64,000 bases of DNA from a virus. Below are positions 1 through 46,106 of this stretch, one piece after another (positions within the stretch are counted from its first letter, which is position 1; each line of letters begins with the position of its first letter). The translations under genes were made by a program, and so were the position numbers. The stretch spans positions 32,001 through 96,000 of IMG/VR virus record IMGVR_UViG_3300047510_001668. One strand, given 5' to 3'. The notes below the pieces were generated by a model. It was not told the DNA's origin, did not search any database, and saw nothing but the letters and a program-made list of their open reading frames with translations.

Positions 1-3000
1 TGGTGTGTAATGTCCTAGAGGATAATTCTGGTCACTAGACACTCTAACATTGGTGCGTCGTACTCCTCCATAAAAATCTACTGTATCTCCAAAATATGCG
101 CCGCCGGTGCCTAACACATAAAATGTTCTTGTTCCTGAAGCATTTAAACCTGTAAAATTAAAATATGCATTGTTAGTAACTCGAGCACCGAAGGCATTGT
201 ATCCTGATAGATAAGAACTCACCGCACCCGAATCAACACTTCCACCTACATTAAGTGTTCCTGCTGTTGTAAGTTCCATTCTTAATGTGGCAGATCCATT
301 AGTATAAAACTTAAGACTATTACTTGTTTCTGATGCAATTGCTAAATTGTTAGATGACCCAGATCCTGTCCAATTTTTTTCGTATCCAATAAATGCAGAC
401 CTAGTTCCGCCGGTTTCATCAACTACCAATCCAAGCATTCTAGCATAGCCAGTAATATGAAGTGCTTGTGATGGACTTGATGTACCTACACCTAAACTAC
501 CTCGAATGTATACATTACCACTGTCATAGATAATCATGTTGTTGTAAGCATCATTACTACTATTGAATCTATAACCAGTGGCACTATCAGCAGTGAAATA
601 TGCGGTGGAGTTTAAACGAACAACGCCAGTTAGTGTCCCTCCGCTTAGAGGTAACGCATATGAACCATAGTTGCCTGAATGAAGTGCAGTATATGCAGTG
701 CCGCCTCCATAGGTACCACTATAAATGTAAAAGACACCACTTTCATGATAATACTTCCAGCCGTAGGTGTGATTGTAAAATCCAGTAGTATTTCCAGTAG
801 TCATCCATCCTGCGTTACCTACACCGGTGGAAAACATGGCTCCCCAATATCCGTTTCTACTTCCATCCACCATGAATGACCCATAGGTTGTGGCACTAGG
901 GTACATATGAGTCATGGATCCTGAACTTGGGAAATATAATCCGTATGCTGTTCCACCATGGAAATGAGCCCAGGTGTAAAAATTCACATAGGAACTTGCT
1001 GTTGTGCTAAAACGACTACCATTAACTTCAGTGGAAGTTCCTCCGTTAGCCGGAGCAGAACCTGCAGTTCCTGTCACATTGATGCTCCAAGTACCTGAAG
1101 CACCTGTTCCTGTCAATGTTGGTGAATATGAGTTGTAATTGCCTGCATGAAGGATAATATTTCCACTTGGACCTGTGAGGCTACCTCCTTGGGGAGCAAT
1201 ATTAATGGTAGACCCATTGATATTAAGAATTCCATATGATGTCGTATCGCGGTTGTATGCGATAAGGTATCCTTGTCCACCGCTTATACCGGCTTCAGTC
1301 GCAAAACCAGTCGCAGCATTGCCGCTGTACCACCCAGTGAATCTTCCTTGCCCGGTGGTGCTGATGTCGCTAGTAAACGCACGCTGCGATGTTGTTGTGG
1401 CATTTCCACTTAATGCTGCCGTGATGGTGCCTGCCGTGAAGTTGCCAGAGCTATCCCGAGCTACAATTGTACTTGCTGTATTAGCACTTGTGGCATTGCT
1501 TGTGACCGTGAATGTGACAGCAGATGATCCGTTATAGGTTTGTGACCCAGATAATCCCGTGCCCGATACAGCCAATGTTAGTGTATCTAAATTTGTTCCT
1601 AGTGCTTTACCTGAAATGGTACTGTTGGCCAACTTGTTGTTGGCGATACTTCCTGCCAGCATGGCGTTAGTAACTGTTCCCGTATCTGTTGTATATACAC
1701 CATTAGTAACAGTTGACGCATTGCCACTCAATGTGGCTGTAATTGTTCCAGCACTGAAGTTGCCACTGGCGTCACGTGCCACAACTTTTGATGCTGTATT
1801 GGCACTGGTGGCATCCACCGCCAATGTTAAGGCAGCTCCTTCGGACCCACCGTTGCCGCCTGTGATGTAACTACCGTTCGTGATGCTGGCAACGTAATTT
1901 CCTGTGGTGTCAGTACCCAATGCCACACTATCAGCAGCAATCGTGGTGGTAATGCTGATGTTCCCTGACCCATCAAATGCAGCACTTGTGCCTGTGACAT
2001 CACCCGACAATGTTAATGTACGTGCCGTTTGCCATGCAGTAGCTGTTGAAGCATTTCCAGTGACGTTACCTGTCACACTACCTATAAACGATGATGCTTG
2101 AACTGGCGCTAAAGCAAACGAGGCATGAGTGATGTCAATGTACGCCGAGGCATCAGGCTCAGGTGTGTACTGATGAAAGAACTTCCAACGACCATCTGAT
2201 TCATCTCGAAATAATCCAGCATGTCGGTATGTACCATCATTGTAATTACCGGCAAATCCCAAGTCAGGATGTGTGACAGTTGACCCAGAGTTGAGATAAA
2301 TCATGTTATCTTCAACCGCTAAGTTTGTGGCATTGATGGTCACAGTGGTACCTGACACGGTCAAGTTGCCGTCAATCACCATGTTACCCGTCACGTTCAC
2401 ATCATCATCCATGACAGTAGTACCACCTGTGGAATCAATGGTGAGATTTCCCGCAGAGGTATCAATTTCACCGGCGGCAGTGACACCAATACGAACATTG
2501 TCTGCCGTAACACCTGCAAATGTCACATTGTCAGTAGTGGCAACAGCTTGTCCAATTGAAATTTGTCCGGATGTGATGCTGACACCTGTACCTGCCGAGA
2601 AGTGAGCGCGAACTTCAGCAGCACTGGGTCCTGTATAAGTGATGACACCCGTACCTGAATTGTAACTTAAACTTCCGTCGCCCCCTGAATCAGTAACACT
2701 AATGGCAGCACGACTTCTTGTGTCCGTGTACCAAAGATTGATGGGACTGCCATCTTCAGCAATGTCATCTGTGACCAATGTTCTGGTGCCACCTAACGAT
2801 GTGGCAGTGCCATTGATGGTGATGCTGCTGTTGGTTAATGAACTGTTACCAATGTTACTTAATGTATTATCAGCTCCGCTGATGGTCTTGTTAGTGAGAA
2901 CTTGTGTTCCCGTCAATGTGGCAACAGTACTATCAATGGCGAACTGTCCTGACGTATAAGTTAATCCTGTGCCAGCACTTAAATGTGCGCGAACTTCTGT

Positions 3001-3588
3001 GGCGGAAGGACCTGTATAGGTGATGATACCAGTGCCATTATCATATGACAAACTTCCGTCACCGCCTGAATCCGTAACGCTGATGGCAGTTCTGGCACGA
3101 CTGTTTGTGAACCAAAGATTGACAGGTGTACCATCTTCTGAAATATCATCCGTGTACAATGTACCAGAAGCACCCAACGCCACCGACACACCATTGAAGG
3201 ATACACTGCTATTGGTGAGTGAACTGTTCCCAATGTTCGAGAGAGTGTTATTGCTTCCCGAAATTGTTTTGTTGGTAAGTGTATCCGATGTGGCTCTTCC
3301 CACCAATGTGTCAGTTGATGTTGGGAGTGTCAAGGTCCCAGTGTTACTGATACTGCTAATGATGGGTGAGGTTAATGTCTTGTTGGTAAGAACTTGTGAC
3401 CCAGTAAGAGTCACTAATGTATCATTACCTGCGGGGAGTGTAAGTGTAGCTGTGCCAGAAATGGCAATGGTCAAATCACCCGTCCCGGAAAGCCCTAGAC
3501 TGTTACCAGAGGCTCCAAGATTCGTGATGGTTTGATTATTGTTATCTAGCCCATTTTTTGCTACAAACCTTTTGTTAGTTGTCGCCAT
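1..3588 (-). CDS. Long tail fibre protein (N-terminal ~1196 aa; runs off the window edge)
   Basis: Absent from the ORF track because no stop lies inside the window. My translation from ATG 3588 gives MATTNKRFVAKNGLDNNNQ..., with Gly/Ser/Thr-rich beta-fibre repeats (LTNKTISG x3, TDDI(S/A)EDG.P.NLW x2, ATSANTAS..VARD.SGNF.AGTITA x2) and ALHSGNYGSYALPLSGGTLTG. Confidence 0.85.
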   Translation of the reverse strand, partial: MATTNKRFVAKNGLDNNNQTITNLGASGNSLGLSGTGDLTIAISGTATLTLPAGNDTLVTLTGSQVLTNKTLTSPIISSISNTGTLTLPTSTDTLVGRATSDTLTNKTISGSNNTLSNIGNSSLTNSSVSFNGVSVALGASGTLYTDDISEDGTPVNLWFTNSRARTAISVTDSGGDGSLSYDNGTGIITYTGPSATEVRAHLSAGTGLTYTSGQFAIDSTVATLTGTQVLTNKTISGADNTLSNIGNSSLTNSSITINGTATSLGGTRTLVTDDIAEDGSPINLWYTDTRSRAAISVTDSGGDGSLSYNSGTGVITYTGPSAAEVRAHFSAGTGVSITSGQISIGQAVATTDNVTFAGVTADNVRIGVTAAGEIDTSAGNLTIDSTGGTTVMDDDVNVTGNMVIDGNLTVSGTTVTINATNLAVEDNMIYLNSGSTVTHPDLGFAGNYNDGTYRHAGLFRDESDGRWKFFHQYTPEPDASAYIDITHASFALAPVQASSFIGSVTGNVTGNASTATAWQTARTLTLSGDVTGTSAAFDGSGNISITTTIAADSVALGTDTTGNYVASITNGSYITGGNGGSEGAALTLAVDATSANTASKVVARDASGNFSAGTITATLSGNASTVTNGVYTTDTGTVTNAMLAGSIANNKLANSTISGKALGTNLDTLTLAVSGTGLSGSQTYNGSSAVTFTVTSNATSANTASTIVARDSSGNFTAGTITAALSGNATTTSQRAFTSDISTTGQGRFTGWYSGNAATGFATEAGISGGQGYLIAYNRDTTSYGILNINGSTINIAPQGGSLTGPSGNIILHAGNYNSYSPTLTGTGASGTWSINVTGTAGSAPANGGTSTEVNGSRFSTTASSYVNFYTWAHFHGGTAYGLYFPSSGSMTHMYPSATTYGSFMVDGSRNGYWGAMFSTGVGNAGWMTTGNTTGFYNHTYGWKYYHESGVFYIYSGTYGGGTAYTALHSGNYGSYALPLSGGTLTGVVRLNSTAYFTADSATGYRFNSSNDAYNNMIIYDSGNVYIRGSLGVGTSSPSQALHITGYARMLGLVVDETGGTRSAFIGYEKNWTGSGSSNNLAIASETSNSLKFYTNGSATLRMELTTAGTLNVGGSVDSGAVSSYLSGYNAFGARVTNNAYFNFTGLNASGTRTFYVLGTGGAYFGDTVDFYGGVRRTNVRVSSDQNYPLGHYTP

Positions 3589-43046: not shown

Positions 43047-43620
43047 AGAAAGCCTTGTGTGTAATCATTGAAAATTTATCCTTCTCCACTTTGATGAATG
43101 GTGAGTACTTGTGTATGGTTCGTGAAATGGAATTCCAAACTGGATCCAACACCAGCTGTTCATCCACCTCTGTAGTAAATTTATATAGTTTATTTAGAAT
43201 CACAAGTGTTTCCAGCCGACATCTTTTACCACAATATTCCCTGACAATCACAGGATGTCCTCGGGAACAATCCCAGGCATCTTCCAGAATGGCAACATTC
43301 ATGGCTAGATTCTTCACATCTTGTGTGTAGGTGTAGGTCAGACTTTCCTGAATTCTTTTCCATTCCATGTAGATTTCTGGACCTGTGTTCTCAAAGATGC
43401 CCCATTCATTACCATTCAGGAAATTGGCCACCAGATAGTTGATGAACTCATCCTGATTGTAATTGTACTGCTTCATCAACACTTCCAACTTCTTCTTGAA
43501 GCTGACCTTCACCCCTGCCTTGGGAGGCCGAGGTGTGATGCCACTTCGGATGTCATAGTTGTCAGTTGTGAAGTGGAGCCGCAAAGAGGTGTAAATCTTG
43601 TAGGCGTCAGAAACATTCAT
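43039..43620 (-). CDS. gp59: Helicase loader gp59
   Basis: AYKIY.SLRLHFT..NYD, YLVANF, ETLVIL, I.KYSPF; gp33-gp59-gp32 synteny. Confidence 0.85.
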   Translation of the reverse strand: MNVSDAYKIYTSLRLHFTTDNYDIRSGITPRPPKAGVKVSFKKKLEVLMKQYNYNQDEFINYLVANFLNGNEWGIFENTGPEIYMEWKRIQESLTYTYTQDVKNLAMNVAILEDAWDCSRGHPVIVREYCGKRCRLETLVILNKLYKFTTEVDEQLVLDPVWNSISRTIHKYSPFIKVEKDKFSMITHKAFYE

Positions 43621-43889
43621 ACAGGAAGTTTGGCAGTCTTTTTCAACAGGTTCATTTCTTCAGCTTCAGCCTGTATCTTGGCCTTCAAGGAACTGGTAAT
43701 CATGGTGGCCACAGCCACAGGTTCTATTCCTTTCTGTTCACAATACTCCAGCAACGCCTCGAAACATCCTATCTTACGTTTGATGGCTTCTTTTTCAATG
43801 TGTATAGAAAACTCTGTGGAACTGGTGAATTCTCGGGTGATGAGATATTCCACTGTGAGTATTTTGGAATCTTCTGGTTCAGCGGTCAT
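43617..43889 (-). CDS. gp33: Late-transcription coactivator gp33
   Basis: FSIHIE, ALLEYCE..GIE, LKAKIQAEAEEMNLL. Confidence 0.88.
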   Translation of the reverse strand: MTAEPEDSKILTVEYLITREFTSSTEFSIHIEKEAIKRKIGCFEALLEYCEQKGIEPVAVATMITSSLKAKIQAEAEEMNLLKKTAKLPV

Positions 43890-44374
43890 AATGGCTCATA
43901 AAAAATGTGATTGCCTATTTGTGTGATGGGCTTGGCGAATGTCCAACCAGGCTTCACAGATGTATTATGAAAATACATCGCATTCTTTAGTATAACAACA
44001 TGTGTGTTGTTTGTCAAGACCTCTTTGGCAATTTCATAGGACACTTGATACACGGTGCTGTCGAACGGAGCTTTTGGACCACAGGTCCAGGAGAATTGAC
44101 ATCCTCGGCTGTTCCGTTGATACACCACACCACAAATGGTTTTCGGGAACTGTTTATGTCGGACACGATTCATGGTCACTGTGGCAACTGCCAACTTGCC
44201 ACGGTAGGATTCCATGGGTGCCTCATAGAAAATGTTCTTGGCTAAGCATGTCAATTGCTTCTCATCCAGAACAACTTTTGAAATGGGTTTACGTTCCATC
44301 ACAGGAACTGGATGATAATCTCCCACCAACAACGCCAGCAACATCAACACAATCAAAAATGCATTTCTGAACAT
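43886..44374 (-). CDS. SleB/CwlJ-like cell wall hydrolase (Hydrolase_2) with N-terminal signal anchor
   Basis: CLAKNIFYEA, AVATVTMNRV, FPKTICGVVYQ, QFSW, YFH, IGNHIFY; start 44374 with SD GGAGG. Confidence 0.9.
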   Translation of the reverse strand: MFRNAFLIVLMLLALLVGDYHPVPVMERKPISKVVLDEKQLTCLAKNIFYEAPMESYRGKLAVATVTMNRVRHKQFPKTICGVVYQRNSRGCQFSWTCGPKAPFDSTVYQVSYEIAKEVLTNNTHVVILKNAMYFHNTSVKPGWTFAKPITQIGNHIFYEPL

Positions 44375-44404
44375 AGAACCTCCCATGTGAAATGTACATA
44401 ACAA

Positions 44405-44663
44405 GGTGGGGGTTTTCTGTTCCCAGGGAACCCCCGAACCCGGCATGCTACTTAATTAAGCAGCTAATGCAAGAGGCGTATTATATGTGCCTGTTAATGT
44501 TTTTGCTCTGCTTACGGCAGTCGCCTATCGGGTAGCTCTCTCATCTAGTCCTTAACCTGTCGAAACCAGTCATCCCCGAAATGTTTGCTACTGAATGGAG
44601 ATGGAGGGAATCGAACCCTCGTCCAAGCTATGTTTCAATTTGAGCTGTTCTACTACCATCCTA
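44405..44663 (-). ncRNA. ssrA: Circularly permuted (two-piece) tmRNA gene; tag (A)AKTLTGTYNTPLALAA*
   Basis: Minus strand reads ...AGCTTGGAC-GAGGG-TTCGATT-CCCTC-CATCTCC-A(44596), an 18-nt spacer, then GGGGATG(44577)ACTGGTTTCGACAGGTT.... The acceptor stem is 7 bp with G3.U70 and A73. The tag ORF 44506-44456 ends in LALAA-TAA, with the stop in a hairpin loop. Confidence 0.92.
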
Positions 44664-44668
44664 CAGAA

Positions 44669-45397
44669 CTATTTATGAAACTCTTTGACAGTGATTTTGT
44701 TATCAGCATCAATTAATATAGCTGTCAGATTTTCCACCCAATCACCAGAATTTAAATAGTGAACACCTGCAATTTGTCTATCTTCTGGTTTGTGGATGTG
44801 ACCACAGATAACACCAGAGCAATTGTTTTGTCGTGCGAGATTTGCGGCACCTACTTCAAAGTCTGTGATGTAGTTGACTGCTGCTTTCACCCCATTCTTA
44901 ATATCTTTAGAAATGGAATAGTAAGGAAGTCCTCTCCATGCTCTCCACTTATTATACCAGGTATTCAATCGAAGTGCCAATTCATATCCACTTGCTCCAA
45001 TTTGTGCAATCCACTTCCATTTAGCAACAAATACGTCCAAGATGTCTCCGTGGAAGATGAAATACTTTTTGCCTTCACCGAGGTCAAGGATGTAATTTTC
45101 TTCCACTTGTAACTTGCCGAGATGCATATGCATGAATTCGTGTAAGAACTCATCGTGATTCCCACGTATCCACACCACAGGTATCTTTCTGGAAATGTCT
45201 AATACTTTAGATATCACCTTGGTATGCTTTGCTCTCCAACGAACGCCACGGGACAATGCCCATCCATCCACGAAGTCACCGTTGATAATCAAGATGTCGG
45301 TGTGATGTTCTTCCAGAAACTTCAAGAACTCCACTGCTTTGCAATCTTCTGTTCCTAAATGGACATCTGATACGATAATGGCTTTGTAGTGCTTCAT
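44669..45397 (-). CDS. LpxH-like metallophosphoesterase (UDP-2,3-diacylglucosamine hydrolase family)
   Basis: SDVHLG, NGDFVDGW, GNHD, FHGD, CGHIH, NSGDWVE. Confidence 0.88.
   Translation of the reverse strand: MKHYKAIIVSDVHLGTEDCKAVEFLKFLEEHHTDILIINGDFVDGWALSRGVRWRAKHTKVISKVLDISRKIPVVWIRGNHDEFLHEFMHMHLGKLQVEENYILDLGEGKKYFIFHGDILDVFVAKWKWIAQIGASGYELALRLNTWYNKWRAWRGLPYYSISKDIKNGVKAAVNYITDFEVGAANLARQNNCSGVICGHIHKPEDRQIAGVHYLNSGDWVENLTAILIDADNKITVKEFHK
44670..44677 (-). promoter_or_regulatory. Late-promoter-like CATAAATA upstream of the tmRNA gene
   Basis: One mismatch to TATAAATA; the predicted start falls just 5' of the acceptor piece. Confidence 0.5.
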
Positions 45398-45398
45398 A

Positions 45399-46106
45399 TT
45401 AATTCCAGTAATTCACTTTCGCCTTCTCAAAGTGCTTAAGGTTGTTTCTATTCAAGAAGTTGACTATCATGTACCAAATCATTCCAAGATAACCTAGTTT
45501 CTTGAACCTGCGTTCATCTTGTCCAAAGTAATGGTCCACAATCATAAACTTCTTGGCATCATACTGTTTACTCAATATGTAATCTTCGGATGTATCATAT
45601 TTGTTTGGAAATCCACCAAGCTCATCAAACTTGTCTTTTCTGGTCAAAAAGAATGCTCCGATGGCAAATGGAGTTTTCTTGGTCATGATTTTGTTGATGA
45701 GATTGAAACACCAGAAGAAGAACGAGGCACGAAGATGTTCACCGTAATTCTTAATGTTGGCTGTTATCAAGTCCAAATTATATACCACCATCTTGTTTAC
45801 CGCATCATAGATGGTGAAGGGATGAAACAACCTCACATCAGCATCCAAAAACAGAATGTATGGAGTAGTTACCAACTTGGCACCGTTGTTTCTTCCTACA
45901 GATACCGGTCCTCCTGTAATCACTTCAATATTCAACACATCATCATACAATTTCACCACCGAGATAGTATTATCGGTACTATAGGCATCTGCGACAATGA
46001 TACGAGTGTTTCCGATACCCACTTGTTGTGACAAAGAATCAAGTAGATGTCCAATATATTTTTCTTCATTCTTGCAGGGGATGATGATGGTGACTAAATC
46101 TTTCAT
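45399..46106 (-). CDS. GT2 family glycosyltransferase
   Basis: TIIIPCKNEE, VADAYSTD, GRNNGA, LFLDAD, GGFP, SED. Confidence 0.9.
   Translation of the reverse strand: MKDLVTIIIPCKNEEKYIGHLLDSLSQQVGIGNTRIIVADAYSTDNTISVVKLYDDVLNIEVITGGPVSVGRNNGAKLVTTPYILFLDADVRLFHPFTIYDAVNKMVVYNLDLITANIKNYGEHLRASFFFWCFNLINKIMTKKTPFAIGAFFLTRKDKFDELGGFPNKYDTSEDYILSKQYDAKKFMIVDHYFGQDERRFKKLGYLGMIWYMIVNFLNRNNLKHFEKAKVNYWN

Follow-up and report, generated by a model that had tools for sequence, protein, structure and literature searches.

Two-piece transfer-messenger RNAs (tmRNAs) are known from bacteria (Keiler et al. 2000; Sharkady and Williams 2004; both cited in PMC9004378; also PMC11915505). In phages, a two-piece ssrA gene was described in the OM43 phage Melnitz by Buchholz et al. 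2022 (PMC9004378), who also reported permuted tmRNAs in 17 of the 47 contigs that resemble Melnitz. Of 402 phage genomes with a tmRNA, they counted 53 in which ARAGORN called the two-piece form, and 50 of these 53 came from marine or aquatic samples. A tmRNA database published in 2025 lists 79 phage tmRNAs (PMC11915505). Here we analyze a 64,000-nt stretch of viral DNA (the window), bases 32001-96000 of the 177,878-bp IMG/VR virus record IMGVR_UViG_3300047510_001668, which is 99% complete by CheckV. Its minus strand carries what is very probably a functional tmRNA gene in the two-piece (circularly permuted) form, and the phage, ~178 kb in size, is T4-like and related to Melnitz and the pelagimyophages. 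A preliminary description of the sequence had proposed a phage-encoded permuted tmRNA at this place, and covariance models, ARAGORN, and covariation across 21 relatives agree on it.

A permuted tmRNA gene on the minus strand

ARAGORN calls a single permuted tmRNA in the entire window, at 44365-44685 (-), with the tag GTYNTPLALAA. Among the Rfam 15 covariance models, tmRNA_permuted (RF04321) matches over its full length with 112.7 bits (cut-off 47, E 3.5e-21), and the beta_tmRNA model (RF01850) scores 97.7 bits (cut-off 84, E 2e-28). The alpha model (RF01849) also exceeds its cut-off, with 63.2 bits against 50, whereas the cyano model remains below its cut-off of 70 with 50.6 bits, from a match confined to the tRNA-like part. 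Both of the computational checks named in the preliminary description, ARAGORN and the Rfam models, thus return a permuted tmRNA.

The permuted order is explicit in the gene, where positions 55-90 hold the 3' tRNA domain and positions 109-134 the 5' domain. All of the tRNA-like elements named in the preliminary description are found: the T-arm and 3' acceptor strand lie ahead of the 5' acceptor strand across an 18-nt gap (44620-44571 on the minus strand; Table 1), the acceptor stem contains the alanyl identity pair G3.U70 and is followed by a discriminator A, and the pairings CAGGTT/AGCTTG and GCTACC/GGTAGT can join the two pieces. When the single sequence is folded, the T-arm and acceptor stem form, together with the stop hairpin and one of the inter-piece helices. 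The acceptor-before-coding order, G3.U70, the T-arm, UGGUUUCGAC, and the inter-piece helices are shared with the bacterial tmRNAs represented by RF01850, RF01849, and RF04321, and bacterial two-piece tmRNAs likewise place the tag stop in a hairpin loop and have a reduced set of pseudoknots.

Selection on structure across relatives

A search of IMG/VR with a strict permuted-order pattern, allowing a spacer of at most 35 nt, returned 106 contigs, and ARAGORN called a permuted tmRNA in 91 of the pattern-matched loci that were fetched. The family of the window tmRNA accounts for 27 loci, representing 24 distinct sequences, at 71-97% identity. For the covariation analysis, 21 distinct family members were aligned over seven helices, including the 3' pseudoknot, and 40 pairs were counted.

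Standard pairs occupy 97.6% of the 807 cells in this alignment, compared with 42-62% when the 3' partners are slid, and nine pairs change on both sides. The covariation score of 0.155 stands against 0.068 in shuffled alignments, none of 500 shuffles reaching the observed value. G3.U70 is kept in all 21 relatives, while acceptor position 5:68 covaries between A:U and G:C. The two inter-piece helices are 98-99% paired with four pairs changed on both sides, so that the connections between the pieces are backed by covariation. Compensation can be followed in individual helices: the T-stem alternates between GAGGG/CCCUC and AGGGG/CCCCU, an inter-piece helix between UAGCUUG/CAGGUUA and AUUCUUG/CAGGGAU, and the stop hairpin between GCUGCU/AGUAGC and, in relative L096, GCUGCC/GGUAGC. 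The predicted 3' pseudoknot is moderately supported: 96-98% of its cells are paired, and relative L085 alone swaps GGGG/CCCC for AUGA/UCAU, its stems being otherwise nearly fixed. The spacer between the two pieces is the sole hypervariable, indel-rich stretch within the gene. Both the stem and the tag, whose conservation in related phages had been proposed as a check, are conserved in the aligned relatives.

The tag reading frame

The encoded tag is (A)GTYNTPLALAA, read from a resume context of UAA-CA-GGC to a frame end of GCU GCU UAA. The preliminary description had the end of this frame right, including its LAA-type degron, but placed the start at a GCA codon or possibly at the AAA that follows it; the resume codon is neither of these but GGC. 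The longer tag starting at GCA (AKTLTG...) was rejected, because a 1-nt insertion throws it out of frame in three relatives (L035, L017, and L052) and an in-frame TAA directly follows in a fourth (L016). By comparison, every intact relative has a UAA-NN-G[G/A/C]C context in the same frame as the stop, L085 carrying GCC (Ala) at this position. Codon changes within the tag are largely synonymous (AAT/AAC, CCT/CCA, CTT/CTC, TTA/CTC), and its C terminus is preserved as PLALAA, or as YALAA in a distant branch, which together argue that the frame is translated. In Escherichia coli tmRNA, the resume codon has the spacing UAG-UC-GCA, which the window tmRNA matches.

ARAGORN reports the status of the tag as "Tag not identified", and its N-terminal part is unlike every bacterial tag met in this analysis. 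Nor was the tag found in a small amount of supplement text from PMC9004378 and PMC11915505. For L085, ARAGORN gives a different tag (VDNTTKTVYI; locus 1589-2034), while the alignment gives ANFNQAYALAA (GCC AAC UUU ... GCC GCG UAA) at the conserved resume site.

A probable T4-type late promoter

The preliminary description had noted a late-promoter-like element ahead of the gene, and this observation gains weight from the relatives: the box NATAAATA is invariant and lies at a fixed distance upstream of the tmRNA. Its ATAAATA core (44676-44670 in the window, where it is preceded by C) occurs in 21 of 21 sequences, always five variable nucleotides ahead of the conserved GUAGGAUGG. The base before the core is C, G, or T across the family, and the sequence further upstream is unrelated among relatives.

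The T4 late consensus is TATAAATA (PMC5587285). This octamer is found nine times in the window compared with 0.8 expected, an enrichment of ~11-fold, and ATAAATA occurs 16 times compared with 5.4 expected, which indicates that the phage uses T4-type late promoters. The gp33-type late-transcription coactivator is encoded two genes downstream of the tmRNA. We found no sigma-70-type promoter directly upstream of the tmRNA and no intrinsic terminator after it on the minus strand. Taken with the late-type box, these two results suggest that the tmRNA is probably transcribed late and together with the hydrolase and gp33 genes downstream.

Table 1. Positions of the tmRNA elements and the two genes downstream, in window coordinates
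Feature	Position	Strand	Description	Basis
T4-type late-promoter box	44670..44677	-	CATAAATA	ATAAATA core invariant in 21 relatives
Acceptor piece	44596..44664	-	Predicted transcript start to discriminator A; contains the 5' strands of both inter-piece helices, the T-arm, and the 3' acceptor strand	5' end predicted from promoter spacing
T-arm	44620-44604	-	GAGGG-UUCGAUU-CCCUC	Sequence and alignment
3' acceptor strand	44603-44597	-	CAUCUCC	
Discriminator	44596	-	A	
Intervening spacer	44578..44595	-	18 nt; presumably excised during maturation of the two pieces	
Coding piece	44408..44577	-	Contains GGGGAUG, invariant UGGUUUCGAC, the inter-piece 3' strands, an invariant PK1-type region, the tag, the stop hairpin, and the 3' pseudoknot	ARAGORN, Rfam, alignment of relatives
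5' acceptor strand	44577-44571	-	GGGGAUG; makes G3.U70 with CAUCUCC (7-bp acceptor stem)	
Inter-piece helix	44630-44624 with 44559-44553	-	UAGCUUG/CAGGUUA	
Inter-piece helix	44657-44652 with 44536-44531	-	GGUAGU/GCUACC	
Tag frame	44456..44491	-	Resume codon GGC (44491-44489) to stop UAA (44458-44456); encodes GTYNTPLALAA	ARAGORN and alignment
Stop-codon hairpin	44447..44464	-	GCUGCU/AGUAGC, tag stop in loop	Changes on both sides in two pairs
3' H-type pseudoknot	44408..44443	-	CCGGG with CCUGG and GGGG(G) with CCCC(C)	
SleB-type cell-wall hydrolase gene	43886..44374	-	Likely ATG at 44374 behind GGGAGG	PF07486, endolysin PHROGs
gp33-type late-transcription coactivator gene	43617..43889	-	Marker of the conserved locus	phrog_254, E 3.8e-16

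Comparison with other phage two-piece tmRNAs

The surroundings of the tmRNA are those of a T4-type phage, with replication genes for gp32, a gp59-type helicase loader, PhoH, a PDDEXK exonuclease, and an ATP-dependent ligase. Among cultured phages, the closest in gp32 sequence are Melnitz (57% identity), several cyanomyophages, and Pelagibacter phage HTVC008M (55%). The gene order is PhoH, PDDEXK exonuclease (then a family-2 glycosyltransferase and a metallophosphoesterase), tmRNA, hydrolase, gp33, gp59, and gp32. It is kept in relatives, and the locus is conserved in those whose gp32 proteins are 66-99% identical.

The ssrA gene of Melnitz (MZ577097.1 45984-46436) is likewise a permuted tmRNA in a T4-like (Kyanoviridae-type) myophage. 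Its locus, reading PhoH, PDDEXK nuclease, two small open reading frames (ORFs), ssrA, riboswitch, gp33, gp59, thyX, and gp32, matches that of the window phage, and the window tmRNA is therefore a positional ortholog of a published feature. The novelty implied by the preliminary description does not hold, as phage two-piece tmRNAs, including positional orthologs in Melnitz and apparently in HTVC008M, are already in the literature. The two genes differ in several respects, however, as do their phages, whose gp32 proteins are only 57% identical. Both tags end in ALAA, but that of Melnitz starts with Ala (ANDNYVPVDYALAA) and that of the window with Gly (GGC). The best model for Melnitz is alpha RF01849, at 106.7 bits, whereas the window tmRNA is weakly of the beta type, at 97.7 bits. 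The spacer measured by ARAGORN is 18 nt in the window compared with 142 nt in Melnitz, 49 nt in HTVC008M, and 57 nt in the Stenotrophomonas phage Marzo. CCA is encoded in these three phages and in several other large phage contigs but not in the window tmRNA. A glutamine riboswitch (RF01739, 52.8 bits) lies downstream of the Melnitz gene, whereas none is present in the window at the gathering threshold. Upstream, Melnitz has a TTGACA -35 box together with an exact TATAAATA, whereas no -35 box precedes the window tmRNA. The Melnitz promoter (TTGACA, then 17 nt; MZ577097.1 ~45970-46010) has been described as early, yet it ends in the exact TATAAATA, which suggests that Melnitz ssrA may also be transcribed late.

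HTVC008M also encodes a permuted tmRNA (KC465899.1 145161-145370; RF04321, 90.6 bits), with the tag ANFNEYALAA. It is located ~1.9 kb from the end of the linear record, in which gp59 is the first gene, and would occupy the same locus if the genome is circularly permuted, as we assume. In a tree of the conserved core, the HTVC008M and Melnitz tmRNAs pair on long branches apart from the window family. No tmRNA was found in cyanophage S-CAM8.

The best BLAST match in the phage collection, with 80% identity over the tRNA-like core and the same permuted order, is the tmRNA of the genus Menderavirus (Stenotrophomonas phages Marzo, Mendera, and Moby), which Table S1 of PMC9004378 gives as "Permuted". 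This tmRNA is also weakly of the beta type (94.6 bits), with the ARAGORN tag VAANDDSYTVRIAA in Marzo. Its position, however, is not the gp33-gp59 locus but a cluster of tRNA genes, and the phage lineage is unrelated.

Relationship to bacterial tmRNAs

Subtype scores within and around the family are mixed. With the beta model, a bacterial-like copy among the fetched loci (L019) scores 299 bits compared with 97.7 bits for the window tmRNA, and one member of the family (L020) is best matched as alpha. The tree of the conserved core (156 columns) recovers the window family as one clade (SH-aLRT 84), which falls outside the Burkholderiales clade and separately from tmRNAs of the cyano type, while deeper branching is poorly resolved.

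We also scanned 185,579 species genomes for a 23-nt signature of the PK1 region. It occurs in 10 of them, all betaproteobacterial and mostly Comamonadaceae-type Burkholderiales (Variovorax, Roseateles, Caldimonas), and the tmRNAs of these genomes match the window tmRNA with 75-77% identity over at most 84 nt. We considered a recent capture from a host and set it aside, given these short matches and the restriction of similarity to the T-arm in 401 sampled Burkholderiales. There are two further differences from the bacterial genes: the window promoter is of the phage late type, whereas the beta model has a sigma-70 type built in, and CCA is encoded in all Burkholderiales tmRNAs fetched, unlike in the window tmRNA. 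Because of the low similarity to bacterial sequences and the mixed subtype scores, we regard the family as a diverged phage lineage, with no firm alpha or beta assignment.

Two observations concern the bacterial tmRNAs themselves. The two-piece tmRNA tags of Variovorax, Roseateles, Caldimonas, and related genomes (L116-L124) end in KQA, KRA, or KWA, as in ANDSFYLKQA, and not in LAA. With RF01850, three bacterial genomes (Roseateles sp. YR242 and two metagenome-assembled genomes) score 84.7, 79.4, and 68.8 bits in relation to the cut-off of 84.

Neighboring genes

An ORF at 43886-44446 overlaps the tmRNA, but we reject it in this extended form as a first-ATG artifact: GGGAGG precedes the ATG at 44374, and homologs in relatives align from about residue 20-30. 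Read from 44374, the hydrolase has 162 amino acids with a hydrophobic N-terminal segment (MFRNAFLIVLMLLALLV...), which suggests an endolysin of the signal-anchor type.

Insertion hot spots flank the tmRNA on both sides. In most relatives, a QueC-like PP-loop gene (PF06508, weak at 28.5 bits, SGGxDS) and an S8 subtilase gene lie between the tmRNA and the hydrolase, for example at 1413-3488 (-) in L096 and in alignment columns 470-550 in most of the others. Both genes are missing from the locus of the window phage, whose genome has no homolog of the QueC-like protein. On the other side, the metallophosphoesterase and the family-2 glycosyltransferase between the exonuclease and the tmRNA (44669-46106, -) occur only in the window phage and its two closest relatives (L096 and L064); in other relatives, the exonuclease gene reaches almost to the tmRNA promoter.

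Host factors and proposed mechanism

As the preliminary description had noted, the gene does not encode CCA: its acceptor end is CUCCA followed by UUC in the window tmRNA and CUCCA followed by CUU in relatives. That description had also remarked on a missing smpB in the window, and this extends to the whole 177,878-bp genome, in which we found no SmpB, no CCA-adding enzyme, and no SspB. The tmRNA must therefore use host factors. Twenty-nine tRNA genes, covering most amino acids and mostly without an apparent encoded CCA, are clustered outside the window at genome positions 107279-111770 (-).

The following course of events is proposed from these features. Transcription from the T4-type late promoter CATAAATA would yield one precursor, probably extending into the hydrolase and gp33 genes. 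The 18-nt spacer would then be excised by host RNase P together with 3' trimming, and a host CCA-adding enzyme would finish the 3' end. The resulting acceptor piece of ~70 nt and coding piece of ~170 nt would be held together by the 7-bp acceptor stem and the two inter-piece helices, for which there is covariation. Host alanyl-tRNA synthetase (AlaRS) would charge the RNA via the invariant G3.U70, and host SmpB would bring it to stalled ribosomes. Translation would resume at GGC and append (A)GTYNTPLALAA, a step for which both the frame and selection on the frame are in evidence; the peptide expected on tagged proteins is AGTYNTPLALAA. The LAA end should direct the tagged product to host ClpXP-type proteases, so that the net effect would be additional ribosome-rescue capacity late in infection.

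In a separate part of the genome, outside the window, a 197-amino acid ORF (148654-149028, -) matches the ClpP protease family (PF00574, 32 bits) and may encode either an auxiliary ClpP or a prohead protease.

Discussion

The case for a functional tmRNA gene is carried by the convergence of covariance models, permuted gene order, compensatory substitution, and a conserved tag frame, but several points weigh against it. The energy of the single-sequence fold is unexceptional (z = -1.26). The PK1-type region and one stem of the pseudoknot never vary in the 21 relatives; this region and most of the pseudoknot are thus backed by conservation, without covariation. The box CATAAATA matches the T4 consensus at seven of eight positions, and the start of transcription is predicted from its spacing. 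Two relatives carry a truncated tmRNA, L028 (10717-11160) and L108 (3133-3576), both copies breaking off within the tag frame after CCUCU, with the end of the tag missing along with the stop hairpin and the 3' pseudoknot. The gene therefore appears to be dispensable at least sometimes and can decay in this phage group. BLAST against the 401 sampled Burkholderiales, as candidate hosts, gives T-arm matches only. Finally, expression, processing, charging, and tagging for the phage tmRNAs of this group are predictions from sequence.

An unlikely alternative, which would refine the function while leaving the identity of the RNA as it is, is a specialized role in counter-defense or takeover, either in rescue after host abortive-infection nucleases have cleaved tRNA or mRNA, or in the selective tagging of host proteins. 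The latter was raised for Melnitz by Buchholz et al. (PMC9004378). The invariance of the late-type promoter would fit such a role, as would a tag front with no counterpart among the bacterial tags met in this analysis and the 29 phage tRNAs, which suggest pressure on translation supply. Against this, we see no sequence link to any defense system, a tmRNA tags anything that is stalled, so that selectivity would have no known basis, and truncated copies occur in relatives. Similarly doubtful is the proposal that the subfamily is a phage-tuned late rescue device directed against RNA-cleaving abortive infection rather than a borrowed host gene, with in-place replacement of the cassette potentially tracking host switches. 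It draws on the late-only promoter, on the Gly-initiated tag with its unmatched front, and on a locus that holds sequence-divergent tmRNAs in relatives, of the alpha type in Melnitz and apparently also in HTVC008M.

It is very unlikely that the RNA acts as a decoy or inhibitor of host trans-translation, titrating SmpB or AlaRS rather than tagging. A precedent of this kind has been reported for mycobacteriophage DS6A, whose tmRNA-like RNA has no tag (cited in PMC11915505), and a phage without its own SmpB would have an RNA that must compete for that of the host. The tag frame is nevertheless intact in all but two relatives, with the resume context, synonymous changes, and LAA end all kept, and a pure decoy would not retain such features. 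Least probable of all is that the gene plays no part in the phage and is a neutral passenger or a relic, whether host DNA that was captured, an attP-type fragment, or the product of a chimeric assembly. Prophages commonly integrate at tmRNA genes, fragments of such genes do occur in phages, and the copies in L028 and L108 are truncated, but the window gene is full length, sits at the same locus across gp32 divergence down to 66% identity (57% for Melnitz) with compensatory and synonymous substitutions, has a phage-type promoter, is found independently on ~25 viral contigs, and has no close bacterial counterpart in either the sampled Burkholderiales or the pattern scan of species genomes.

We therefore retain the interpretation as a functional phage tmRNA. 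The window tmRNA is a sound annotation and an additional subfamily of the known phage two-piece tmRNAs, and not a new kind of biology; the locus offers no special handle on the role of phage tmRNAs in infection. The subfamily is distinguished by a minimal, empty spacer of 18 nt, a resume codon for Gly, an invariant late-type promoter, and the absence of both an encoded CCA and a riboswitch. For annotation, the gene is one that ORF-based pipelines miss, and its identification corrects an over-extended hydrolase ORF. For the wider phage group, the tmRNA locus that runs from the PDDEXK exonuclease to gp33-gp59 is common to the window clade and Melnitz, and apparently to HTVC008M. This same locus is alpha-scoring in Melnitz and weakly beta-scoring in the window, which bears on the published ssrA-subtype evidence for a host switch: covariance-model subtyping of diverged phage tmRNA copies is not robust.

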